Positions 35,103-60,315 of a stretch of 64,000 bases of DNA are shown in pieces (positions within the stretch are counted from its first letter, which is position 1; each line of letters starts with the position of its first letter). The notes beneath the pieces are model-generated. The model searched no databases. It saw only the letters and a program-made list of their open reading frames with translations, and was not told the origin of the DNA. A program made the position numbers and the translations under genes. The DNA comes from an uncultured Candidatus Saccharibacteria bacterium. GTDB lineage: Bacteria > Patescibacteriota > Minisyncoccia > Phycocordibacterales > Zambryskibacteraceae. Location: positions 25,514-89,513 of the forward strand of contig CAZDXF010000002.1 of NCBI GenBank assembly GCA_964509605.1, given 5' to 3'.

Positions 35103-37040
35103 ATGGCAAATCCCAACACTAAGAAAAAGAAACAGCATAAGGTTGTTATAAAAAGGGGCTTTAAACAGGGGTCTGGCCCTCAAAATCCAATGTGGAAAAA
35201 TTTTCTTTCCACCCTCCTTGTTTTTCTCATCATAATGACACTTTACTCCGCTGTTTCCGAGAGGAGGGAAAAAACCGAGCAAATTCCGATTTCACAACTA
35301 GCTTCGGCTGTAATAGAAGAGAAGGTTTCAAAGATAATTGTAAGCGGAGATAAACTGGAAGTTGAATATTCAGACGGTTCAAAAGTTGATTCAAAAAAAG
35401 AAGCCGAATCTTCTCTTTCTGAAACTCTGTCAATTTACGGAGTTTCTCCCGAAGTTTTAGCGAAAGTTCAGATTGAAATAAAGTCACAGGGAGGTCTTGG
35501 TTTCTGGATCTTGAATTTATTACCGATTATCATACCGATTTTATTTATAATATTTTTTATTTGGTTTTTGTCCCGCCAAGTCAAAGGGGCCGGCATGCAG
35601 GCATTTACTTTTGGCCAATCAAAGGCGCGAATTATTCCAGCTGGAGACACAAAACAAAAAGTCACATTTAAAGATGTCGCTGGTGTGAAAGAAGCAAAGC
35701 AAGAGCTTTATGAAATTGTAGATTTTCTAAAAAGCCCGAAGAAATTTTTAGATATTGGCGCTCAAATTCCAAAAGGAGTTTTACTTATGGGTGCTCCTGG
35801 AACAGGTAAGACGCTTTTGGCTAGAGCTGTGGCGGGTGAGGCAGGAGTGGCATTCTTTTCAATTTCTGGTTCAGAATTTGTAGAGATGTTTGTGGGCGTC
35901 GGAGCTTCTAGGGTTAGAGACTTATTTCAGCTTGCAAAAAAGGCATCTCCGGCAATTATTTTTGTTGATGAAATTGACGCTGTTGGAAGGGTGAGAGGAG
36001 TTGGCGCCGGTGGTGGAAATGATGAAAGGGAGCAAACTCTAAACCAAATTTTGGTGGAGATGGATGGTTTTGAACCAAATGAAAAGGTGATTGTAATGGC
36101 CGCGACCAATAGACCCGATGTGTTAGATCCAGCACTTCTTCGTCCGGGCAGATTTGATAGGAGAGTTGTGATTGATTTGCCAGATAGGGGTGATAGGGAA
36201 GAGATTCTTTTAATACACGCACGACAGAAACCTTTAGCAGAAGATGTGAATTTGAAGGTTATTGCAGAGCGTACCCCAGGTTTTTCTGGTGCGGATTTGT
36301 CCTCCCTTATGAATGAAGGAGCTATTCTTGCCGCTAGGGAAGATCGCACCAAAGTTTCGCAGTTTGATCTTATTCGTTCTATAGAAAAAGTAATGCTAGG
36401 TCCTGAGAGGAAAAGCCATCTTCTATCAGTAAAAGAAAAAGAAATTACTGCGTACCACGAAGCGGGACACGCCTTAGTTGGTTCAGTTCTTGAATATTCT
36501 GATCCTGTTCATAAAATTTCTATAATTTCTCGTGGTCGTGCCGCTGGATACACATTGAATCTTCCTCTTGAAGATAGAAGATTACAATCTAAAAAAGAAT
36601 TTTTGGACGATATAGCGATGTCACTTGGAGGTTATGTCGCAGAAAGGTTGGTGTTTGGTGATATTACTACAGGCCCGTCTAATGATCTGCAAGTTTCTAC
36701 TGCCTTAGCACGAGATATGGTGACCAAATATGGAATGTCTGACAAAATGGGCCCGATTGCTTTGGAAAGTTCTTCCGGCAAAACTCTTTTTGGCAGGGGA
36801 GTTGATGACAGAGATTATTCAGAAAAAGTTGGAGCCGAAATTGATGCTGAAGTTTCAAAGATAATGAAAGAAGCGTTGGCAAAAGCTCAAGATATTCTTG
36901 AAAAACATCGCAAAGTTTTGGATGTGATCTCTTTGAGACTTATAGAAGTTGAGACAATAGAAAGGGATGAATTTGAAGATATATTGGTTGCAAACGGCAT
37001 CACCCCAAAAAAGAAAAAAGACATAGAGCACCAGGTTTAG
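35103..37040 (+). CDS. ftsH: ATP-dependent zinc metalloprotease FtsH
   Basis: AAA+ Walker [18 protein letters not shown] zinc site. Extended -10 tgTATAAT lies upstream at ~35084-35091. Confidence 0.9.
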
Positions 37041-37043
37041 TTT

Positions 37044-37084
37044 GTCCGCCCTCCAGGATTCGAACCTGGGACCCCGGAGGTATA
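37044..37084 (-). pseudogene. Partial duplicate (3' half) of the adjacent tRNA-Ile gene
   Basis: 41 bp identical to 37100-37140 (acceptor 3' strand, T-arm, anticodon stem), then diverges. Confidence 0.5.
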
Positions 37085-37099
37085 TGAACGATTACATAG

Positions 37100-37173
37100 T
37101 CCGCCCTCCAGGATTCGAACCTGGGACCCCGGAGGTATAAGCTCCGTGCTCTAACCAACTGAGCTAAGGGCGG
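37100..37173 (-). tRNA. tRNA-Ile (anticodon UAU)
   Basis: Cloverleaf: acceptor CCGCCCU/AGGGCGG, D-stem GCUC/GAGC, anticodon stem CGGAG/CUCCG with loop CUUAUAC, T-stem CCAGG/CCUGG, T-loop UUCGAAU. CCA not encoded. Confidence 0.65.
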
Positions 37174-42842: not shown

Positions 42843-43298
42843 TTATTTTAGATCGGCTATTATTATTTTTTTCATTTGCATCATTTTTGCAAAAGCTTTT
42901 GGGTCTTGAACCCATTCATCAATCCCTTCTGGTGCCACTTGCCAGCTAAGACCGTATTTGTCTTTAAGCCAACCACAAACACTCTCTTGTCCACCGTTCG
43001 AAGTGAGTTTTTCCCAGTAGTAATCTATTTCCGATTGATCTTTACAGTTAATCAAGAATGAAACAGATTCATTAAATTTAAATTCAGATCCAGCATTTAT
43101 TGCGATAAAGCTCTGTCCTAGAATCTCAAATTCTATAGTCAAAACTTTTTCAGCAAATTCTTTTTGGAAGTCCGCAAGTCCTTCTTTTGGATAATAATTT
43201 ATTGAAATTATTTTTCCTTCTGGAAAAACAGAAAGATAAAAATCAACAGCTTCTTTGGCATTTCTATCAAACCATAAATTTGGAACAATCTTTTTCAT
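42843..43298 (-). CDS. VOC-family PhnB-like protein (3-demethylubiquinone-9 3-methyltransferase domain)
   Basis: N-terminal PNLWFD...EAVDFY motif typical of PhnB-like VOC proteins. Confidence 0.65.
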   Translation of the reverse strand: MKKIVPNLWFDRNAKEAVDFYLSVFPEGKIISINYYPKEGLADFQKEFAEKVLTIEFEILGQSFIAINAGSEFKFNESVSFLINCKDQSEIDYYWEKLTSNGGQESVCGWLKDKYGLSWQVAPEGIDEWVQDPKAFAKMMQMKKIIIADLK

Positions 43299-43552
43299 AT
43301 TTTTTTAAAATCCTTTCTGGCGGTGTATTTTAAAAATAGCTCGAACTGCATTCCCTCGCCGAGCTTCGCGCGGCTCGGGTGCGGCGGGGCAAAAATGAGC
43401 GGCTCCGCCTCGCACACTGACAATTTTAAGTTTTTCTTTGGCGGAATACAAATTCGAGCGTGCGAAGCACCCACAAAATAGTTCTTTCAAACTCAAAAAG
43501 AAAGGCGCCGTACCCGGAGGTCGTGCGCCTGATTGCGACCGCATGACGCGGT

Positions 43553-43891
43553 CTAGTCCTTCTTGCCCTGGACATACTCGGGAACCTCGGCGAGCATCTC
43601 CGAGAGCATCCAGCCGGCCACAGCTTCCTTGTCCTCGTGCGAGAGGCCGAAGGTGCCGAGCAGGCCGAGGAAGCAATCCTTCTGGTGTCGCTGTACCGTC
43701 TCGTCGCCGGACTTCCATTTCCAGTTGGCGATGTTGGCACCGCCGAAGAAGACGCGGCTTGCGTAGCTCGACCACGGATTGTAGAGTTTGAATTCGGGCG
43801 GACAGAGCTTCGCGAGCTCACGCTCGTTGGAGAGTCCACCGAATGCCTGGCCGTGACCAGCGAACAGCGGGGACGCCGTCTGCGTTTCCAT
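43553..43891 (-). CDS. Hypothetical protein encoded in the high-GC island segment
   Basis: ATG at 43889-43891, preceded by AAGGAGGTG 7 nt upstream. 112 aa (METQTASPLFAGHGQAFGG...). The overlapping ORFs in other frames are GC artefacts. Confidence 0.5.
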   Translation of the reverse strand: METQTASPLFAGHGQAFGGLSNERELAKLCPPEFKLYNPWSSYASRVFFGGANIANWKWKSGDETVQRHQKDCFLGLLGTFGLSHEDKEAVAGWMLSEMLAEVPEYVQGKKD

Positions 43892-44127
43892 CGTATTCAC
43901 CTCCTTCAAGGTTTAGTTTCCAACCTAGACGTCGTGCCTAAGTTGATAAGTACCATAGCACGACTTGAATTATCAGTCAAGAAACGACCGAGCGTTGCTT
44001 CTTGGAAAAAATCAGAATGAAAAAATTTCTTTTACCCTTATTGATAAAAGCATTTCTTTTTCGCCAAAAATTCCATACGAATTAGCCGCCGAGCGAAGCG
44101 AGGCGGACAGCCTGCATTTGCAAAATC

Positions 44128-44320
44128 CTTTCTGCGGTGATGTATTAGCCTTTGCGCGAACTCATTTTGAACGAAAGGAATGATGCGCGCCTCGTCCGCT
44201 CCCTTCGGTCGCGATCCCAAAACCAAAAATTTTCCTTCCTTTCTTAGATTTTCGGCGGGGGGTGTGGGGGGGAGCCGACAAAAAATGGAAAGGAAATTTT
44301 TGGTTTTGATTCGCCGCTTC
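44128..44320. repeat. 193-bp inverted repeat, left copy (IR-A)
   Basis: Perfect reverse complement of 45783-45975. Begins with the core CTTTCTGCGG. Confidence 0.9.
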
Positions 44321-44533
44321 AGACTACAAAAAGAGTAGATATTTGTATTTTAACACATTTGACTACTCTTTTCTCCGTCTTCGCGGCGAGACGAGGCGCT
44401 TCCAATTCGGTTGCGCTGAAGCGCATCATATTTGTATTGTGCTTGCCCCGCCCGCCCAGTGCGCGCACAAAGCCGTGCCGTTTTGAAGAAATATTATAAA
44501 ACGGCAAAACGGCGGGGATGGCTCCCTAGAAAA

Positions 44534-45481
44534 CTAATAACTAAAATTGACAGTCACGCTATCGCTGGAAGAATCAACTTTTCCGCTACTTGCCCCGCAA
44601 GTAAGTTGATACGTAGTCACGCCTGTCTTTTCATTTCCTGTCCAAACATTTTCAGATCCACTGGTGGACTTGGCACCAGACCAATATGTATCGCCTGAAG
44701 CAGTACAGTAATCAGAATTGTTTGATGTCCAACTGAAATTAGAGTAGCCAGCCGATTTTGTTATCGGGCCATCTGAATTGTTTATTTTTAGATCAGCTGA
44801 TGGCAGTTGCTGTGTTAACTGAAATGGCACTGTCACTGGATTCGAAGAATTAGTGCCGCCAGCTCCGGTACAGGAAACTGTATATGTCGTAGTCTGGGAA
44901 AGGGATACCGCCATCGACCCAGACGGTGATAATTTTGATTTTTCGAAATTACAGTAAGTCGCATTTGTTGATGACCAGTAAAGTGTAATTGTTCCGGGCT
45001 TCCCGTCAGAAACAATTGACGTTGGGTTCGCGTATAGGTACACGCTCGGAGACGGAATTGTTGTCTGGATAGGGTTAGGTGTCGGTGTAGGATTCGTTGG
45101 GGTTGGAGTTGTAACCGACGGAATTACTGATGCTGTGTTTCCACATTTACTGTTCCATAAGTTCCGTGTCTTTGGGCCATAAGTGCCGAAACCAAAAGTG
45201 TTCGATGGAATTCCAAGCCACGCTTGCAGTTGCGACACTCGACCGCCTGGCTCGGTGTCAAAATTGCCATAAGAGAGGTCGGCAAAGGTACTGCACGACA
45301 GCACACCTGTGGACCCCTGCAATTGGGCAATCTGTGCTTGAAGCGCTTTAATCTGCGCGAGCAAGGCCTGTATTTGAGCGGCAACATCAGTTGTTTGTGC
45401 AAAAGTTGGCGTTGCAAAGCCAATGGACACAAGAATTCCAAGCGTCAAGAATCCTGTGGCAATATATTTTTTCATGGTCAT
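44534..45481 (-). CDS. Secreted surface protein: signal peptide, Ala/Gln coiled coil, Thr/Pro linker, Ig-like beta domains
   Basis: N-terminal signal MTMKKYIATGFLTLGILVSIGFATPTFA, then AQIQALLAQIKALQAQIAQLQ, then TPTPTNPTPTPNP, then Ser/Thr/Gly-rich beta domains. Confidence 0.65.
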   Translation of the reverse strand: MTMKKYIATGFLTLGILVSIGFATPTFAQTTDVAAQIQALLAQIKALQAQIAQLQGSTGVLSCSTFADLSYGNFDTEPGGRVSQLQAWLGIPSNTFGFGTYGPKTRNLWNSKCGNTASVIPSVTTPTPTNPTPTPNPIQTTIPSPSVYLYANPTSIVSDGKPGTITLYWSSTNATYCNFEKSKLSPSGSMAVSLSQTTTYTVSCTGAGGTNSSNPVTVPFQLTQQLPSADLKINNSDGPITKSAGYSNFSWTSNNSDYCTASGDTYWSGAKSTSGSENVWTGNEKTGVTTYQLTCGASSGKVDSSSDSVTVNFSY

Positions 45482-45494
45482 TTATTATTGATAA

Positions 45495-45716
45495 TTATTT
45501 AATAAAATACTTAATATCCTTACCATATAGTTTAGCAAATCGTTGAAGTTCGACAACATCAACTCTTTGCTGTCCTGATTCAACATTTGAGATGTGCGAT
45601 TGCGGACGTTTCAACTTTTTTGCCACTTGCACTTGGGTCAATCCTACTTCTTGCCGAGCCGCCCGCAACCGCTCAACAAAATAGGCATATTCCTTTGTGT
45701 GGATTGACTTAACCAT
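45495..45716 (-). CDS. XRE-family helix-turn-helix transcriptional regulator
   Basis: LTQVQVAKKLKRPQSHISNVESGQQ HTH motif. Putative promoter at 45720-45780 (minus strand). Confidence 0.75.
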   Translation of the reverse strand: MVKSIHTKEYAYFVERLRAARQEVGLTQVQVAKKLKRPQSHISNVESGQQRVDVVELQRFAKLYGKDIKYFIK

Positions 45717-45782
45717 ATGATACTATGGTCTATCCAAACATTCAATATCCAAACTTTAGATATTGTGATAAACTAGATTTTG

Positions 45783-45975
45783 GAAGCGGCGAATCAAAAC
45801 CAAAAATTTCCTTTCCATTTTTTGTCGGCTCCCCCCCACACCCCCCGCCGAAAATCTAAGAAAGGAAGGAAAATTTTTGGTTTTGGGATCGCGACCGAAG
45901 GGAGCGGACGAGGCGCGCATCATTCCTTTCGTTCAAAATGAGTTCGCGCAAAGGCTAATACATCACCGCAGAAAG
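45783..45975. repeat. 193-bp inverted repeat, right copy (IR-A')
   Basis: Perfect reverse complement of 44128-44320. Ends with CCGCAGAAAG. Confidence 0.9.
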
Positions 45976-46096
45976 AAACTTCCAAATCCGAAAGGTGGGA
46001 AGAAGCCCGCGCCGAAGGCGCGGGGCTAGGCAAAATGTTCCGTCGCTCCGCGACGAATTGGGACGGAATGGGCAGGGCGAAATGGGCGGATTTGTC
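45966..46096. repeat. 131-bp inverted repeat, left copy (IR-B); shares the CCGCAGAAAG core with IR-A'
   Basis: Reverse complement of 47512-47642 with one mismatch. Contains the hairpin gcccgcgccgaaggcgcggggc. Confidence 0.85.
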
Positions 46097-46122
46097 CTTG
46101 TTTCAATCTAAAAGCAATTTAT

Positions 46123-47691
46123 ATGTCCAAACCAAAGTATTTTCTTTACGCTCGCAAGAGCATCGAGGACGATGACCGACAAGTGATGTCCATTGAGGCA
46201 CAGCTTTTTGAGTTGCGAGAATTGGCGCGTAAAGAAAATCTTGAAATTCTTGAGGAATTTCAAGAGTCGAAAAGCGCAAAGACGCCTGGACGCGAGGTAT
46301 TCGGCGAAATGATGTTAAAAGTAGAGAAATTGGATGGTGTCGGCATATTAGCGTGGCATCCCGATCGCCTCGCGCGTAATTCGATTGACGGTGGACGAGT
46401 AATTTACGCCGTGGACACTCGCAAGGTTGTGTCTTTGCGCTTCCCGACATTTTGGTTTGAACCAACCCCGCAAGGGCTCTTTATGTTGCAAGTGGCGTTT
46501 GGGCAGAGCAAATATTATTCTGATAACTTATCCGACAATATTAAGCGAGGTGTCCGCCAAAAATTGAGACGTGGCGAATGGTTGAACTTAGCTCCCTTTG
46601 GCTATCAAAACAACCCGCGTATTAGAAATATTGAACCTCATCCGACAAATGCTCGCGTGGTGAAGTTAGCTTTTGAGGAATACGCCAAAGGTTCGCACAC
46701 TTTTATTTCGCTCGCGCAATTTTTGGCGGACTTAGGTGTGGTAACAAAACACCAAACGCCACTCGCCAAAGTTTCCATCAAACGACTTCTTACTCATCGA
46801 GCATATCTCGGTTTCGTGAAGCATGGACAAGAATGGTTTGATGGAAACTTTGAGCCAATTATTTCTCCCGCATTGTTTGAAGCCGTGCAGAAAGTATTGC
46901 AAACGAAGGAAAGGCCGCGCAAAAGGAAAATCAAGCATGATTTTCCTTTTACCGGACTTTTTCGATGTGGCGAGTGTGGCAGTATGATTTCCGCACAGTG
47001 GGCAACTGGAAAGTCTGGTCGTCGTTATCGGTATTATCGGTGCTCGAAAAAGCGCGGCCATTGTTCGCAAGCTTATTTACAAGAAAGTGAACTTACGAGG
47101 CAAATCTGTGCACGGCTTCAAACAATTTCGCTTTGCGATCGCTATACCGACTGGATGTTAGATAAAGTGAAACTGTGGGAGCACGAGGAAATTGGAGCGT
47201 CGCAAAGCGAGGTTCAAAATCTTTCCGATAGTATCAAAGCGAACGAGGAGCGCATGGAAAAACTACTCTCGGCGTATTTAGATGGTGATGTACCAAAAGA
47301 GGTTTACCTTAAACGAAAAGATGTTCTCATGCGCTCTCTCGCCGCTTTGAAAGAGAAAAAGAAAGATTTTGAACGCGGAAGAAAAAATTGGGTCGAACCC
47401 TTGCGGGAATGGATTTTAGATATGAAACAAGCCGATTTTTTGTCCTCTTCGTCTGATTTGTACCAAATCAAGTCGTTCGTCCAAAAAATCGGAACGAACC
47501 CCTTGGTTCGTGACAAATCCGCCCATTTCGCCCTGCCCATTCCGTCCCAATTCGTCGCGGAGCGACGGAACATTTTGCCTAGCCCCGCGCCTTTGGCGCG
47601 GGCTTCTTCCCACCTTTCGGATTTGGAAGTTTCTTTCTGCGGAAGGGGAGGGATTCGAACCCTCGGACCGATTTCTCGGTCAACACATTAG
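46123..47691 (+). CDS. Large serine recombinase (resolvase/invertase catalytic domain + recombinase domain + zinc ribbon)
   Basis: N-terminal YARKSIEDDDRQ...SIEAQ catalytic serine motif, DRLARN, C-terminal CGECGS...YYRCSKK zinc ribbon. The ORF tail reads through IR-B' into the tRNA, so the true stop is uncertain. Confidence 0.8.
   Translation: MSKPKYFLYARKSIEDDDRQVMSIEAQLFELRELARKENLEILEEFQESKSAKTPGREVFGEMMLKVEKLDGVGILAWHPDRLARNSIDGGRVIYAVDTRKVVSLRFPTFWFEPTPQGLFMLQVAFGQSKYYSDNLSDNIKRGVRQKLRRGEWLNLAPFGYQNNPRIRNIEPHPTNARVVKLAFEEYAKGSHTFISLAQFLADLGVVTKHQTPLAKVSIKRLLTHRAYLGFVKHGQEWFDGNFEPIISPALFEAVQKVLQTKERPRKRKIKHDFPFTGLFRCGECGSMISAQWATGKSGRRYRYYRCSKKRGHCSQAYLQESELTRQICARLQTISLCDRYTDWMLDKVKLWEHEEIGASQSEVQNLSDSIKANEERMEKLLSAYLDGDVPKEVYLKRKDVLMRSLAALKEKKKDFERGRKNWVEPLREWILDMKQADFLSSSSDLYQIKSFVQKIGTNPLVRDKSAHFALPIPSQFVAERRNILPSPAPLARASSHLSDLEVSFCGRGGIRTLGPISRSTH
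47512..47642. repeat. 131-bp inverted repeat, right copy (IR-B'); abuts and overlaps the 3' end of tRNA-Ser
   Basis: Reverse complement of 45966-46096. The core CTTTCTGCGG at 47633-47642 includes the tRNA's last bases. Confidence 0.85.
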
Positions 47692-47726
47692 CAGTGTGCT
47701 GCATTCGACCGCTCTGCCACCCTTCC
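47640..47726 (-). tRNA. tRNA-Ser (anticodon GCU), class II with long variable arm
   Basis: Acceptor GGAAGGG/CCCUUCC, D-stem GCA/UGC, anticodon stem GCACA/UGUGU with loop CUGCUAA, variable arm GACCGAGAAAUCGGUC, T-stem GAGGG/CCCUC, T-loop UUCGAAU. Confidence 0.8.
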
Positions 47727-47783
47727 TTTTTGTAGGCTGTAATCTATCATACTCTGCTTTCACTTCAAAACATCCCCCACTAT

Positions 47784-48443
47784 TTAATGAGCCATTGTAA
47801 AAGCCAATACTTTTTTAGCGCCTGCGGAAATCAGTGTTTTTCTAGCTTCTGACAGGGTGCTTCCGGTTGTTACCACATCGTCTATCAAAATTATCTTTGC
47901 GCCCGATATTTCATAACTGTTTTTGATTTCAAAACACCCTTCAAGATTTTTCAACCACTCCTTTCTTTTTAAAGAAGTTTGCGGTAGCGTGTCTTTTTTT
48001 CTAATCAAAATTTCTTTATTGTATTTAAGCAAACCACTCTGATCATTTTTTAAAATTGCTTCACAGATAAGCTCTACTTGGTTAAAACCCCGTTCAGTTT
48101 TTCTCTTTTTAGAAAGGGGAATTGGAATAAGGATAAAGTTTTTGTTTGCACTAGCCACCAGCTCATCTCCCAGGTTGTCTATGATTCTTTCGTAAATTAA
48201 ATTGCTAACCGCTTGTGAAAGTTTCTTATTTTCTTTGTATTTTATTGCCCAGACCAAAGCTCTTACTCTTCTGTCTCCATAATCAAACACAGATTCTGCC
48301 CACGATATCTTGTTATCAACACACTGCGGGAGGTAAGATAGCTTATTTTCATCAGCCATTTTTTCTAATTCCAAAACAGCTTTTTCTTTGGGAAATATGA
48401 AATCAACAATCTCTCCTGCTATTTTGGTCAGAAGACTTAACAT
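47784..48443 (-). CDS. comF: Competence protein ComF (phosphoribosyltransferase domain)
   Basis: C-terminal PRTase motif ILIDDVVTTGSTL. Confidence 0.7.
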   Translation of the reverse strand: MLSLLTKIAGEIVDFIFPKEKAVLELEKMADENKLSYLPQCVDNKISWAESVFDYGDRRVRALVWAIKYKENKKLSQAVSNLIYERIIDNLGDELVASANKNFILIPIPLSKKRKTERGFNQVELICEAILKNDQSGLLKYNKEILIRKKDTLPQTSLKRKEWLKNLEGCFEIKNSYEISGAKIILIDDVVTTGSTLSEARKTLISAGAKKVLAFTMAH

Positions 48444-55928: not shown

Positions 55929-56390
55929 ATGAAAAAAGATAGAGGTTTTACACTTATAGAGCTTTTGGTGGTCATAGCGATCATCGGGATTCTATCTTCA
56001 GTTGTCTTGGCGAGTTTGAATGTAGCCAGAGGAAAGGGTGCTGACGCTGCTACAAAATCAAACTTAAGTAATGCTAGAGCACAGGCTGAGGTTTATTACG
56101 ATGGAAATAGCCAAGCTTATACCAACCTTTGCACTGCAACAGGTGCTAACCCTGGTATTGGAACAATGCTGACCGCAGCACAATCTAGTTCTGGGGCGGC
56201 GAGCATAGTAACTGCAAACGGAACTGCAGGAACTGCTACTACTGTTATATGTCATGCTGATGCAAACGGTTGGGCTGTTTCAGCTCCACTTAGATCAGAG
56301 ACGGGGTATTGGTGTGTTGATAGTGCTGGTACTTCTGCAAAGAAAACAAATGTTTTGGCGGCTAACTCAATGGCTTGTCCAGCAACATAA
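55929..56390 (+). CDS. pilA: Type IVa major pilin
   Basis: Leader MKKDRG|FTLIELLVVIAIIGIL and C-terminal Cys pair. A strong terminator follows. Confidence 0.85.
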   Translation: MKKDRGFTLIELLVVIAIIGILSSVVLASLNVARGKGADAATKSNLSNARAQAEVYYDGNSQAYTNLCTATGANPGIGTMLTAAQSSSGAASIVTANGTAGTATTVICHADANGWAVSAPLRSETGYWCVDSAGTSAKKTNVLAANSMACPAT

Positions 56391-56412
56391 TCTGCTTTTA
56401 GTTTCTTTTTTC

Positions 56413-56442
56413 AAAAACCCCGGTTTACCGGGGTTTTTGTTT
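56413..56442 (+). terminator. Rho-independent terminator after pilA
   Basis: aaaaccccgg-ttta-ccggggttttt. Confidence 0.6.
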
Positions 56443-56490
56443 GGGGATAAAATGCTGTGTTATAAACGAAATAATCTGTATAATTGATTT

Positions 56491-56958
56491 ATGAATAGAC
56501 AAAAAGGTTTCACTCTCATAGAACTTCTAGTAGTAATTGCCATCATTGGAATTCTATCTTCAGTTGTTTTGGCGAGTTTGAATACTGCTAGAGGGAGAAG
56601 TGCGAATGCTGCTATAAAATCAAATTTAGCAAATGTAAGAGCCCAAGCAGAGCTCTTTTACGATACGACTGGAAACAGTACATATGGCGCTTTTGGTACG
56701 GCTACTGCAAATTGTCTGACAACATCAGCAAGCCTGTTTGCTGATACTAAAATTAGGTCATTTATAACTTCTGCTCAAAGTGCCGGAGGGGGCACAGCTC
56801 TTTGCGCTTCTCAACCACTTTCGAATTCAACTTCTTTTGTAATTTCCGTTCAACTCAAACAAACAGAGGGCACATTTAACTATTGGTGTGTGGATTCTTC
56901 CGGAAGTTCTAAAGGACACGCTTCTGCTATTAGCGGAAGCCTAACAGCTTGCCCATAA
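56491..56958 (+). CDS. Type IVa pilin (second copy)
   Basis: Leader MNRQKG|FTLIELLVVIAIIGIL. Confidence 0.8.
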   Translation: MNRQKGFTLIELLVVIAIIGILSSVVLASLNTARGRSANAAIKSNLANVRAQAELFYDTTGNSTYGAFGTATANCLTTSASLFADTKIRSFITSAQSAGGGTALCASQPLSNSTSFVISVQLKQTEGTFNYWCVDSSGSSKGHASAISGSLTACP

Positions 56959-56968
56959 AAATAATTTA

Positions 56969-57144
56969 ATGAATAGACAAAAAGGTTTTACCCGCACACC
57001 TGTTTTAAGTAAATTTTCCAGAAATTTGTTCGGATTATTTTTTGCAAACCAAACTCAAAATGAGGGAGGCAAAGAATTAGATAAAACAGGTGTTAGCTCT
57101 GCCAAAGCAGAGCGCGGGTTTACTCTTATAGAACTTCTCGTGGT
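56969..57144 (+). repeat. 176-bp perfect direct repeat (second copy 57589-57764) spanning the 5' ends of two adjacent pilin genes
   Basis: Identical from the ATG through gaacttctcgtggt. Identity stops exactly there. Confidence 0.9.
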
Positions 57145-57544
57145 AATAGCGATCATTGGAATTTTAGCTTCGGTTATTACGGTAAATCTTACTAGTACAA
57201 AAAATAAATCTTCAAATACTGGGATAAAGACAAATTTAGCGACGGTTCGTTCTCAAGCAGAAGTTTATTACAATCAAAACAGCTATGTGTACGGATCTTA
57301 TTCAGGAGCGTGCCCCACAGTTTCAGGAACCGGACATGTCTTTTTGGATCCTGTTGTTGTTTCTGCAATGAATGCAGCAAAATCTGCCAGCGGGGGTACA
57401 GCTCAGTGCTGGGCAAATGGCAATCAGTGGTCGGCTTCCGTCCAACTCCGAGTTCCTGAGGGAAGTGCCAATCATTGGTGTGTGGATTCAACCGCAGCGG
57501 GCAGAGGTACAGCCACAGCACCAAGCAGTTCACTTTGTCCATAA
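56969..57544 (+). CDS. Pilin with unusually long (49-aa) leader
   Basis: MNRQKGFTRTPV...KTGVSSAKAERG|FTLIELLVVIAIIGIL. The 5' 176 bp are identical to the next gene. Confidence 0.7.
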   Translation: MNRQKGFTRTPVLSKFSRNLFGLFFANQTQNEGGKELDKTGVSSAKAERGFTLIELLVVIAIIGILASVITVNLTSTKNKSSNTGIKTNLATVRSQAEVYYNQNSYVYGSYSGACPTVSGTGHVFLDPVVVSAMNAAKSASGGTAQCWANGNQWSASVQLRVPEGSANHWCVDSTAAGRGTATAPSSSLCP

Positions 57545-57588
57545 AGTGTTATAATAGTGTTCTTAACGGTTTAATTAATTTTTTCAAA

Positions 57589-58185
57589 ATGAATAGACAA
57601 AAAGGTTTTACCCGCACACCTGTTTTAAGTAAATTTTCCAGAAATTTGTTCGGATTATTTTTTGCAAACCAAACTCAAAATGAGGGAGGCAAAGAATTAG
57701 ATAAAACAGGTGTTAGCTCTGCCAAAGCAGAGCGCGGGTTTACTCTTATAGAACTTCTCGTGGTCATCGCCATCATTGGTATACTTTCTTCAGTTGTCTT
57801 GGCGAGTTTGAATGCTGCTAGGGCAAAAGGAGCCGATGCGTCCATAAAGTCCAATCTCTCAAATATTAGGCCTCAAGCCGAAATATATTTTGATGACAAT
57901 GGTCATTACGGAGCTGATGTAGATGATAACTGCTCAGCTGGAATTTTTGCAGAGGCAACAATGTCCGCGGCCATTTCTCAAGCTTCCACTGTTAGTGGTA
58001 GTGCTGCAAGTTGTTTTGCAGAGGATGGCATTACTGGATCAGGGGGTACAGCTGCTAACAGCTGGGCCGTTTCAGTTCCTCTCAAGAGCGATCCATTAGT
58101 GCATTGGTGTGTTGATTACACAGGTATTTCTACTTCTACACCAAACGGAGCAGATATTACCAGTGATGTCGCATATTGCCACTAA
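57589..58185 (+). CDS. Pilin with long leader (start moved to MNRQKGF)
   Basis: Same 49-aa leader as 56969, with a distinct mature domain. A terminator follows. Confidence 0.7.
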   Translation: MNRQKGFTRTPVLSKFSRNLFGLFFANQTQNEGGKELDKTGVSSAKAERGFTLIELLVVIAIIGILSSVVLASLNAARAKGADASIKSNLSNIRPQAEIYFDDNGHYGADVDDNCSAGIFAEATMSAAISQASTVSGSAASCFAEDGITGSGGTAANSWAVSVPLKSDPLVHWCVDYTGISTSTPNGADITSDVAYCH

Positions 58186-58200
58186 AATGTAAGATTAAAA

Positions 58201-58240
58201 TCACCCCGTTCCGATGAGTCGGAACGGGGTGATTTGTTAT
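58201..58240 (+). terminator. Rho-independent terminator
   Basis: atcaccccgttccga-tgag-tcggaacggggtgat, then a T-run. Confidence 0.6.
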
Positions 58241-58251
58241 ATAATTAAAAA

Positions 58252-59073
58252 GTGATTTCAAACTTTTACTTAATTTCTTTCCTGTTTTTACTCGGAGCAG
58301 TTGTGGGCAGTTTTCTAAATGTGCTCATTTTGAGGTGGAACAGCGGTTTTTCTATTGGGGGGAGATCAAGATGTTTTTCGTGCTCAAAAACTCTTTCTTG
58401 GTATGAACTTTTTCCCATACTGAGTTTTATTTTCCTTAAAGGAAAATGCCGATCCTGTAAAACAAAAATTTCTTGGCAATATCCGACAGTAGAGTTTTTA
58501 ACGGGTCTTTTGTTTGCTCTCTCTTATTTATATTTTCCTTTTTATTTTGATTTATTTTCCGTGATTTTATTTGTATCCCTGCTTTGCATTTGGTCAGTGT
58601 TAATTTTCTTGGCGGTTTACGATTTGCGTCATATGATTCTGCCAGATTTTTTTGTTTTTCTTTTTGTTTTTCTTTCAGTGGTTTTTGCTTTTTCAAATCA
58701 TACTCTTGGAAATGTAAATCTGTCCTTGTTAGATCTGCTTTCTGGACCGATTCTTTTCACTTTCTTTTTCCTGCTTTGGTTTGTCTCAGGTGGGCGATGG
58801 ATGGGTTTTGGGGATGCTAAACTTGCTTTGGGAATCGGAATATTTTTGGGCTTTCAAAAAGGTATTGTTGCCGTAGCGTTGTCATTTTGGATAGGAGCTT
58901 TGGTAAGTTTACTTATAATCTTGGTTCAAAAATTCTATGTTTCTAGTAAAAAAGGTGGGTTGAGTCTTTCCTCCAAACAAATTACAATGAAAAGTGAAAT
59001 ACCTTTCGGACAATTTCTGATTTTAGGCACAATCCTGTCGTTTTTTATAGATTTTGGATTCTTTCCATTTTGA
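58252..59073 (+). CDS. pilD: Prepilin peptidase PilD (A24 family)
   Basis: N-terminal CxxC...CxxC zinc motif and TM core (DAKLALGIGIFLG). Confidence 0.85.
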   Translation: MISNFYLISFLFLLGAVVGSFLNVLILRWNSGFSIGGRSRCFSCSKTLSWYELFPILSFIFLKGKCRSCKTKISWQYPTVEFLTGLLFALSYLYFPFYFDLFSVILFVSLLCIWSVLIFLAVYDLRHMILPDFFVFLFVFLSVVFAFSNHTLGNVNLSLLDLLSGPILFTFFFLLWFVSGGRWMGFGDAKLALGIGIFLGFQKGIVAVALSFWIGALVSLLIILVQKFYVSSKKGGLSLSSKQITMKSEIPFGQFLILGTILSFFIDFGFFPF

Positions 59074-59729
59074 TGAAACGCTTTTTTAAAAAAATATATC
59101 TATCGTCCCAAAATTCAGGTTTTAGTTTGCCGGAAGTACTTGTATCGGCATTTATTATTGCACTCATTACATCTGTTGTTGTTTTTAATCAGGGAGATTT
59201 TAACGATAGAATTGCCTTAAAAAGTGCTTCTGACGATATAGAGCTTCAGATACGAGAAGCTCAAGTTTACAGCATTAGTGTCAGAGAGTTCTCTCCTTCT
59301 GGTGGAGAGTTCTCATCTTCTTACGGCATTTATTTCAATCTGGATGGCACCACAGGAAGCAATAATTCATATTTATTTTTCGCTGATAGAGGAGTGAAAA
59401 ATAATATTTATGACGGTACAGTGGCTTGTCTTACAGGAGGATCTTATGAGTGCTTGAGGAGATTTACGCTTACCAGAAACAATATAATTTCAGATGTTTG
59501 TGCAATTTTAAGCGACAGTTCAGAAAGGTGCCTTTCAGGCGGACATGTAGAAAGAGTTGATGTTGTTTTTTCAAGACCAAATCCGAATGCTCAAATATCT
59601 TTCTTTAATCTCTCCGGATCGCCCGTTTCTTATGCTGGACATCTTGGTGCTAAAATTACAGTCAGGTCTCCAAAAAACAACACAAAAAATATATATATTT
59701 ACACAACGGGCCAGATTGCTGTTCAGTAA
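59070..59729 (+). CDS. Minor pilin / pseudopilin
   Basis: Leader ...SQNSG|FSLPEVLVSAFIIALI. Confidence 0.6.
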   Translation: MMKRFFKKIYLSSQNSGFSLPEVLVSAFIIALITSVVVFNQGDFNDRIALKSASDDIELQIREAQVYSISVREFSPSGGEFSSSYGIYFNLDGTTGSNNSYLFFADRGVKNNIYDGTVACLTGGSYECLRRFTLTRNNIISDVCAILSDSSERCLSGGHVERVDVVFSRPNPNAQISFFNLSGSPVSYAGHLGAKITVRSPKNNTKNIYIYTTGQIAVQ

Positions 59730-59732
59730 AAT

Positions 59733-60315
59733 GAGAAAATTTTTTAAAAAAGAAAAAAGTGAGGGAAACAGAGTGTTAAATAAAACAGGTGTTAGCTCCG
59801 CTAAAGCGGAGCGTGGGTTTACACTTGTTGAAATACTCGTAGCCCTTGCTCTGTTTATTACCGTTATGACTATTGGTCTAGGCTCTGTTATAAATGTTCT
59901 TGAAGCAAATAGAAAATCAGACTCTTTGAAGTCTGTAATGACAAATCTCAATTTTGCTCTAGAGGTGATGTCTAGGGATATAAAATTTGGAGACTCTTAC
60001 AGTTGTTCTATCTCTACTTGTTCAAGCGGGGACACTTCTATCTATTTTAGAAATAGCGATGGAATAAATGTCAGATACAGACTAAACAATAGCCGAATAG
60101 AAAAATCCGTCGATAATGGAGCGACCTATCAAATCATTACAGCCCCAAACATAGTGGTGCAAGATATGAGGTTTTATATCTTTGGCTACAACACCGGAGA
60201 TGGAGCACAACCTAGAGTTTTGATTTCTATTAGAGGGTATTCAGGTACAAAGCCATCAATTCAGACGACTTTCGTAGTGCAGACGACAGTCTCGCAGAGA
60301 GTTCTTGATTCATAA
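59733..60315 (+). CDS. Minor pilin with long leader containing KTGVSSAKAERG|FTL (alternative GTG start ~59775 possible)
   Basis: Shares the conserved leader-region hairpin motif with 56969/57589. GAGGGA lies 6 nt before the in-frame GTG. Confidence 0.6.

Follow-up and report, generated by a model that had tools for sequence, protein, structure and literature searches.

A small large-serine-integrase island at a tRNA-Ser gene, with a probable inverted duplicate of its attP region, in an uncultured Saccharibacteria bacterium

Introduction

What kind of genetic element places long, perfect inverted repeats beside a serine recombinase gene? In the serine invertase switches (Hin/hix, Gin/gix of Mu, Cin/cix of P1, Pin and Min), an invertible segment adjoins the gene of its recombinase, an enzyme that in the Hin/Gin type is about 190 amino acids long with a C-terminal helix-turn-helix (HTH), and the Cin/cix system of P1 has 0.6-kb inverted repeats. 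The yeast 2-micron plasmid carries Flp/FRT inside 599-bp inverted repeats, and in Tn3 and gamma-delta the res site between the divergent tnpA and tnpR genes gives autoregulation. The large serine integrases, among them those of SPbeta (SprA/YokA), Listeria A118, phiC31 and Bxb1, CcrAB of SCCmec and TnpX of Tn4451, possess a catalytic Resolvase domain with the YARKS motif, a Recombinase domain and a zinc ribbon with a coiled-coil insert. Here we analyze a 64,000-nucleotide stretch (the window, whose coordinates are used throughout) of contig CAZDXF010000002.1, from an uncultured Candidatus Saccharibacteria bacterium. An initial annotation, made from the sequence alone, had found a cassette between perfect 193-bp inverted repeats next to a serine recombinase gene, and had proposed that inversion of the cassette varies a surface protein. 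We find instead that the locus is probably a small island of the large serine integrase kind, inserted at a tRNA-Ser gene and equipped with a duplicated, inverted attachment site (attP) from which both of its repeat pairs stem.

The recombinase of this locus has the same domain architecture as the large serine integrases, and like their elements the island is inserted site-specifically through a very short core, has its attP beside or overlapping the integrase gene, and may have offset half-site motifs. Unlike them, it adds an inverted, full-length copy of the approximately 300-400 nt around attP, so that each of two modules is bracketed by near-perfect inverted repeats. It also differs in belonging to a family of tiny elements (3.5-8 kb) without phage genes, in an integrase with 25% identity or less to phage and plasmid homologs, and in its target, the extreme 3' end of a tRNA or transfer-messenger RNA (tmRNA) gene; targeting of tRNA 3' ends is typical of tyrosine, not serine, integrases. 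As in the serine invertase switches, an invertible-looking segment adjoins the recombinase gene, and as in the P1 C segment the crossover sites lie at the outer ends of long inverted repeats. However, unlike Hin, Gin and Cin, the enzyme is a 522-amino acid protein of the integrase type, no promoter or open reading frame (ORF) is split by a repeat, the cargos are unrelated to each other and nearly fixed in orientation, and a second repeat pair surrounds the recombinase gene itself.

Results

The repeat reported in the initial annotation is exact: 44128-44320 is the reverse complement of 45783-45975 at 193 of 193 positions, a match that makes a chance origin impossible, and with a few mismatches the pair lengthens to 44116-44320 and 45783-45987 (205 nt, 98%). 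A second inverted pair had been overlooked. It consists of 45966-46096 and 47512-47642, matches at 130 of 131 positions and brackets the recombinase gene; no other inverted repeats of at least 40 nt are present in the window. The two pairs abut, and their outer ends, which had been placed correctly at a recombination core, have in common the 10-nt core CTTTCTGCGG, found at 44128-44137, 45966-45975 (as the reverse complement) and 47633-47642. On the right side this core overlaps the 3' end of tRNA-Ser(GCT) (47639-47726, minus strand), an end that would form the B' half of attB, the integration target. We refer to the 183 nt past the core in the first pair as X and to the 109 nt past the core in the second as Y. 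The order of parts is then flank, core, X, cargo, X', inverted core, Y, recombinase gene, Y', core and tRNA-Ser, and the middle block (45783-46096, 314 nt) is the reverse complement of an unbroken Y'-core-X. The GC-rich character of the island was recognized correctly: its G+C content is 0.44-0.61, compared with 0.33-0.40 in the flanks.

The X arm (44128-44320, plus strand), the left arm of the first pair and the putative P' side of attL, begins with the core, of which the minimal shared part GCGG lies at 44134-44137, continues with the conserved P' half-site GGTGAnnTA..CCTTTGCGCGAAC, and ends in an AT-rich hairpin (44218-44308). The Y' arm (47512-47642, plus strand), which would be the P side of attR, contains three small hairpins and terminates in the core, here with the minimal GCGG at 47639-47642. 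Between them, and between the divergent XRE and recombinase genes, is the intact internal copy that bears attP (45783-46096, minus strand); it comprises the right arm of the first pair (45783-45975) and the left arm of the second (45966-46096), with the core at 45966-45975. Folded as single-stranded DNA, the internal copy is unexceptional (z = -0.93), and an Rfam scan of 43000-48000 found the tRNA alone, plus a sub-threshold antisense match to the same tRNA. The AT-rich long hairpin, at 44218-44308 and 45795-45885, reads AAAACCAAAAATTT(T)CCTT ... AAGGAAATTTTTGGTTTT with a C-rich loop such as CTCCTCCCCCGACCCCTCC; its sequence is kept at the inner X end in many distant elements, and it could be a candidate operator, terminator or origin. 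The three small Y' hairpins sit within the last codons of the recombinase gene, and compensatory changes and UNCG-like tetraloops were seen there by eye (alignment A1). RNAalifold gave no consensus structure for 39 Y' arms because the variable region aligns poorly. The codon-position signal is weak in Y', and its sequence seems to be under constraint at the DNA or RNA level no less than at the protein level.

Could the repeats be an artefact of assembly, a collapsed or chimeric repeat? For a short-read assembler, the graph alone does not tell which way round a segment flanked by 193-nt inverted repeats should go, and many related contigs break at these repeats: many stop 200-300 nt upstream of the recombinase gene, which indicates that assemblies are interrupted there. 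Nevertheless, numerous assemblies made independently, in different studies and with different assemblers, show the same architecture, and complete chromosomes are among them (chromosome-level records OY970382.1, our locus L029, and CP060229.1, our locus L042). Logan unitigs of SRR15237813 confirm the junctions of cargo to X' and of tRNA to core and Y', and the recombinase ORF requires Y' for its conserved C-terminus. These independent unitigs end exactly 30 nt inside the repeats. An artefact, which the initial annotation had named as one finding that would undo its reading, is ruled out by the independent assemblies, the chromosome-level records and the unitigs to the point that its probability is negligible. 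Unitigs of the same run also end at 43460 and 44442, where no repeat was detected; these ends could be due to strain polymorphism or a drop in coverage, the former coordinate lying in an old remnant described below and the latter at the cargo-distal end of the element.

The adjacent enzyme is indeed a serine recombinase, as had been noted, but of the large integrase type. The 522-amino acid ORF (46123-47691, plus strand) matches Pfam PF00239 Resolvase (E-value 2.1e-19, residues 7-153), PF07508 Recombinase (1.6e-13) and PF13408 Zn_ribbon_recom (1.2e-10), and carries the serine-nucleophile motif YARKS at residues 9-13. It matches PHROG 95 'integrase' at 1.3e-76 versus only 3.4e-14 for PHROG 'DNA invertase', and the closest structures in the PDB are the SPbeta and A118 integrases, the alignment with the SPbeta integrase spanning residues 9-416. 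The last approximately 45 conserved codons lie within Y', and the ORF continues through the core to a stop codon inside the tRNA gene. More than 5000 homologs were found at E <1e-20, of which the top 120 are 69-94% identical, and nearly all homologs with a named source are from metagenome-assembled genomes (MAGs) of Patescibacteria. In plasmid and phage collections the homologs have 25% identity or less (none above 25% in PLSDB), the characterized integrases nearest to the enzyme likewise do not exceed 25% identity, IMG/VR has no near relative (a single match, 24% identical), and an exact look-up of the protein matched no contig.

To place the element among its relatives, we collected two sets of 80 loci, one drawn from species-representative genomes and the other from metagenomes. 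The double inverted-repeat grammar recurs in most of these approximately 160 loci. A Y/Y' pair of about 130 nt surrounds the recombinase gene in nearly every locus. Where a few kilobases of upstream DNA are available, most loci also show an X/X' pair (150-430 nt) that abuts it; between the X arms, generally 99-100% identical, lie 1.1-5.2 kb of cargo. Tandem arrays follow the same grammar, (X cargo X')(Y recombinase Y'). A second subfamily of large serine recombinases, approximately 40% identical, has the same grammar as well and is located in the same arrays, which are anchored at tRNA genes (L023, L032, L016, L084, L019 and L109), with three elements in a row in L023. In L027, L030, L067, L072, L074, L075 and L078 the upstream Y copy exceeds the coding Y' by 7-11 nt, although the X arms are 99-100% identical in L027, L030, L067 and L074, those in which the pair was detected; this length difference is consistent and has not been erased by homogenization. 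MAGs labelled Nomurabacteria, Yanofskybacteria and Parcubacteria group have recombinases at least 90% identical, and a further cluster at this level takes in a Woesebacteria MAG. Our literature searches found no description of this element architecture.

About two in three complete cargos include an XRE gene. When cargo proteins were compared with blastp, XRE was shared by 14 of 25 loci, and the other cargo proteins are unrelated between elements. They include defense systems (type II restriction-modification, AbiL, a CBASS cyclase with its effector, Gabija- and Ptu-like ATPases and GmrSD) as well as an aromatic amino acid lyase, GTP cyclohydrolase II, and PKD or peptidoglycan (PG)-binding proteins. 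In close relatives, X, Y and the recombinase are 92-94% identical and the cargo genes are different. This could be viewed as a sign of two separately mobile modules, a recombinase mini-circle (Y'-core-Y) and a cargo mini-circle (X'-core-X) integrated in turn, a model that explains why each module has its own repeat pair and gives a fixed orientation without selection. Mini-circles with palindromic att sites should leave P-P or P'-P' junctions, and the model was rejected in this form because none exists in the approximately 165 loci examined. In addition, in 95 of 106 loci the upstream Y arm has a P'-type arm directly beyond its outer end, the second integration would need an attL- or attR-like target, and cargo turnover is explained, with no need for mobile cassettes, by the conserved backbone, which has the XRE gene at one end and a terminator-like hairpin at the opposite end. 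Two independent modules are therefore a highly improbable explanation.

The recombinase 3' end abuts the 3' end of a tRNA or tmRNA gene on the opposite strand in 121 loci. The targets are tRNA-Ser in 46 loci, tRNA-Glu in 35, tRNA-Arg in 16, tRNA-Ala in nine, tRNA-Leu in five and tmRNA in two, the other eight loci having tRNA-Ile (two) or tRNA-Gly, -Val, -Lys, -Pro, -Tyr or -Met (one each). When attL, the internal copy and attR were aligned in 25 loci, they had only 3-7 nt in common, GCGG or TGCGG at tRNA-Ser and GTGA at tRNA-Glu, which places the crossover at the discriminator and last acceptor-stem bases and keeps the tRNA intact. The start of X (the P' arm) is conserved as GGTGAnnTAnTnnCCTTTGCGCGAACC and the end of Y' (the P arm) as GAAGTTTCnnTcTG, whereas the attL-side flank (the B arm) shows no conservation. 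The motif CGAA(C) stands about 20-24 nt away from the core in both P-type arms (P and P') versus 14-18 nt in the tRNA B' arm, where it is part of the T-loop TTCGAAC, so that it stands some 6 nt further out in the P arms. In large serine integrases the outer motif, that of the zinc ribbon, is offset by approximately 5 bp between attP-type and attB-type half-sites, and the CGAA(C) offset is consistent with that expectation; the protein-DNA contacts that it implies are putative. Only a core of 4-10 nt is common in direct orientation and the direct repeats of 15-50 nt of tyrosine integrases were not seen. A tRNA island of the tyrosine-integrase type was rejected on this account and because the integrase is of the serine type.

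Which of the two attP regions is the original? At the split copy the backbone is continuous: on the cargo-distal side conservation goes past the repeat end (..TTCGCCGCTTCAG.CT.C.AAAAGAG.., with a terminator-like hairpin), and on the other side Y' is continuous with conserved coding sequence. In contrast, the ends of the internal copy vary by up to about 20 nt, on one side beside the AT-rich region upstream of XRE, and in the window it ends approximately 27 nt upstream of the recombinase start codon. The split copy would therefore be the original attP region, and the internal copy, judged from these alignments, is probably an inverted duplicate that fills the divergent intergenic region. Even where recombinases are 91-93% identical, X can be aligned with that of the window element over its first approximately 45 nt (the P' arm) only, and yet within each element the X arms are identical over 150-430 nt, which points to a homogenizing process along element lineages. 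The concerted evolution of the arms that the initial annotation had attributed to gene conversion or the recombinase is thus borne out.

One relative suggests what a free form would look like. L082, a JGI contig of 3923 nt with a recombinase 93% identical, consists of cargo, a 399-nt repeat, the recombinase gene and a second 399-nt repeat; the arms are 100% complementary, each is an unbroken X'+core+Y, and there is no tRNA gene or host flank. A circle containing two inverted repeats, each with attP, would be expected to yield such a contig. The predicted excised element is likewise reminiscent of the 2-micron plasmid, a circle with two unique halves, two target-bearing inverted repeats and the recombinase gene in one half, and the element could be conceived as a flip-flop mini-replicon of about 3.5 kb, isomerized or amplified by inversion, of which the chromosomal copy is one state. 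The geometry of L082, in which perfect arms separate cargo and recombinase, fits such a replicon, the structure in the window is what would be expected after the circle had integrated through one repeat, and the arms evolve in concert. Unlike the 2-micron plasmid, however, the element has a serine recombinase and a bacterial host, is integrated at a tRNA gene, and has isomers that are far from equimolar. No replication or partition gene was found in cargo, with no Rep or Par family among the 54 cargo proteins scanned, and cargo families other than XRE are not shared between loci. Among PLSDB plasmids there are no relatives above 25% identity, and the dumbbell-like L082 contig can be produced from integrated copies alone. 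A mini-replicon of this type is decidedly unlikely.

The first repeat pair of the window element encloses 1462 nt with two minus-strand genes, as the initial annotation had described. The first gene of the cargo operon, divergent from the recombinase gene, encodes a 73-amino acid XRE-family HTH protein (45495-45716; Pfam HTH_31 1.5e-12, HTH_3 9.6e-12). The second encodes the 315-amino acid exported protein (44534-45481), the description of which, with a helical part, a linker and beta domains, agrees with the ORF translation, an AlphaFold2 model, Foldseek and the Pfam matches of homologs. The N-terminus is hydrophobic, and the model (mean predicted local distance difference test score 80.6) shows a helix spanning residues 33-55, then a small helical domain (63-113), a Pro/Thr linker modelled with low confidence and, at 146-313, two beta-sandwich domains of the Ig-like kind. 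Homologs match PG_binding_1, in them the match of the small helical domain, and TIG, PKD and fn3; the structure search that had been suggested for this protein, run with Foldseek against the PDB, matched adhesin, fn3 and PKD modules. A cargo-distal non-coding stretch (44321-44533, minus strand) contains a terminator-like hairpin at 44329-44372, and its start continues the backbone that relatives keep past the repeat. The promoter proposed for the XRE gene, TTGAAT-N17-TATCAT, is present on the minus strand (45745-45717) within the unique cargo segment, but is a consensus match only, and promoter-like matches here are not above chance (five found versus 6.6 expected in shuffled sequence). The closest homolog of the 315-amino acid protein (63% identity, 445 amino acids) is at 5036-6610 of L168, in host context and with an XRE gene before it. 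No recognizable X arm is present upstream of it, for which reason it was dropped as evidence of inversion, and the pair of XRE and surface protein may be a module older than its capture by the element.

A perfect inverted repeat beside a serine recombinase gene, with an exported Ig-like protein as cargo, is what had suggested phase or antigenic variation through inversion of the 1.46-kb cassette. Some assemblies do hold the inverted state. The XRE gene is recombinase-proximal within the cargo and divergent from the recombinase gene in about 50 loci, and where both X arms lie inside the contig the XRE-marked cargo is canonical in 22 loci and flipped in two (L053 and L128), with three further flipped cargos (L092, L113 and L124) in which the left arm is at the contig start. 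L113 and L115, from two samples, have the same element and flank with an exactly inverted 2.1-kb segment, but both contigs begin inside an X arm and their orientation may be the assembler's choice. The orientation of the recombinase segment is 121:1; the exception, L108, with the tRNA gene beside the 5' side of the recombinase gene, was rejected as proof of inversion, since a path error through the 130-nt repeat gives the same contig. Free flipping or arbitrary assembly would be expected to give roughly equal numbers, and given the observed bias inversion is rare at most. A few assemblies thus hold the proposed segment in an inverted state, while across the family its orientation is almost invariant.

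Would inversion switch the surface protein? Both ORFs and the promoter-like site are wholly within the unique segment, and the 193 nt outside are identical on both sides, so that inversion would not turn the protein on or off. No outside promoter or partner ORF is evident. The recombinase, of the large serine integrase type, is directed at tRNA 3' ends, the repeats are present family-wide irrespective of the type of cargo, and the site pairs available for inversion would be attL/attP and attP/attR rather than attP and attB; canonical large serine recombinases do not recombine the former pairs. With an orientation that is nearly fixed and a promoter-like site carried inside the cargo, classical phase variation is not supported and is very unlikely, and such inversion as occurs would have no switching role for the surface protein.

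To the left of the element is a decayed earlier copy of the same family (43301-44127), which shows tandem accretion. Its degenerate, attL-like outer junction (43301-43322, plus strand) is TTTTTTAAAATCCTTTCTGGCG followed by a P'-like arm and is the fourth member of the 22-nt core family. The remainder (43323-44127), a remnant of the older tandem element with an internal deletion and G+C up to 0.61, is homologous at its right end to the recombinase 3' end and Y'. The alignment of 43302-43352 with 44117-44166 scores 46, compared with a maximum of 34 in 200 shuffles, that of 43999-44096 with 47476-47565 scores 40 (maximum 37 in 200 shuffles), and by tblastn the right end of the remnant matches recombinase residues 464-481 with 50% identity (E 0.11). 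Integration beside an older copy accounts for an attL flank that resembles a P arm, with 10 nt shared instead of 4. A 118-amino acid ORF in the remnant (43553-43909, minus strand) has no Pfam or PHROG match and may be leftover cargo of the decayed element.

Elsewhere in the window, a 48-nt, 94% direct copy of the 3' part of tRNA-Ile(TAT) is found 55 nt downstream of the original (the pair, our family D6, falls within 37037-37139; the original gene is at 37099-37173, minus strand). It may be a partial tRNA duplication, e.g. the scar or att remnant left by some other integrative element; in L094 and L158, tRNA-Ile(TAT) is also a target of the recombinase family. Tandem gene segments at 55929-59849 (our families D1-D3; spacing 560-620 nt, up to 98% identity) have the appearance of small paralogous genes in an array, and follow downstream of the pilM- and T2SSE-like pilus genes.

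Discussion

How might a single integrase element come to have two pairs of inverted repeats? In the explanation that we consider probable, an attP x attB reaction, with crossover in a core of some 4 nt (GCGG), would have placed an element of about 3.5 kb (44128-47642) at the 3' end of tRNA-Ser(GCT). The attP region of the element would be Y'-core-X; in the excised form it would separate the recombinase gene from the cargo operon where their 3' ends converge, and integration would have split it into attL (core-X, 44128-44320) and attR (Y'-core, 47512-47642). A second, full-length inverted copy of 314 nt (45783-46096) would occupy the space between the divergent XRE/cargo operon and the recombinase gene. 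From the split attP and the internal copy both repeat pairs follow, the 193-bp repeat being X of attL with X' and the 131-bp repeat Y with Y' of attR. The arms would be kept identical by gene conversion, via homologous recombination and/or the recombinase, and the few inverted isomers could be rare crossover products of this homogenization.

Several observations weigh against this explanation. An excised circle, an empty attB or a recombination event was not observed directly; cluster membership lists revealed no circles, and look-ups of the cargo and flanking proteins returned only unitigs of the same sample, with no alternative arrangement or empty site. An assembler could also derive L082 from integrated copies with heterogeneous, clipped flanks. 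Arms have diverged in older or damaged copies (74-79% in L048; 72-88% in L032, which has a frameshifted recombinase gene; and the remnant in the window), so homogenization is not unconditional. Two identical attP copies in the free form predict two orientations of the integrated recombinase segment, and one is seen; a single orientation would need some asymmetry or selection. Finally, no recombination directionality factor was identified. The XRE protein is, by its position only, a candidate for such a factor or for a regulator.

What might the internal copy be for? With its two inverted copies, the integrated element always retains an intact attP. We think it most likely, although this is the weakest step of the explanation, that the internal copy has a cis-acting role, e.g. 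as a recombinase-binding operator at the divergent promoters. The arrangement would be reminiscent of res in Tn3 and gamma-delta, where likewise a site for a serine recombinase, putative in the element described here, is located between divergent genes, one of them that of the recombinase. Unlike res, with its three subsites, the site here is a whole inverted attP copy with its flanks, and a regulatory role is putative. Insulation of each module is another possible cis role. It is conceivable, if unlikely, that the duplicated attP is not a passive duplication but serves a mechanistic purpose new for serine integrases, be it a prokaryotic, serine-recombinase counterpart of the 2-micron flip-flop circle, mobility without a directionality factor, or an attP that acts as recombinase operator or insulator and frees each module from its context.

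The ultra-small Patescibacteria, also known as the Candidate Phyla Radiation (CPR), account for much of the diversity of bacteria, and the mobile elements characterized from them are few. The element family described here looks like a major vehicle for moving single genes and small operons between distant CPR lineages, carrying defense systems, surface proteins and enzymes and residing, often in tandem, at the 3' ends of tRNA and tmRNA genes. Its repeats explain why CPR assemblies frequently break beside these recombinase genes. Genetic tools for CPR bacteria are scarce, and the compact, tRNA-targeting integrases, with their defined attP/attB pairs, could be useful additions. Among serine integrases, a conserved design of double inverted repeats with an attP kept intact inside the element is unusual, and it could reveal a new mode of regulation or mobilization.

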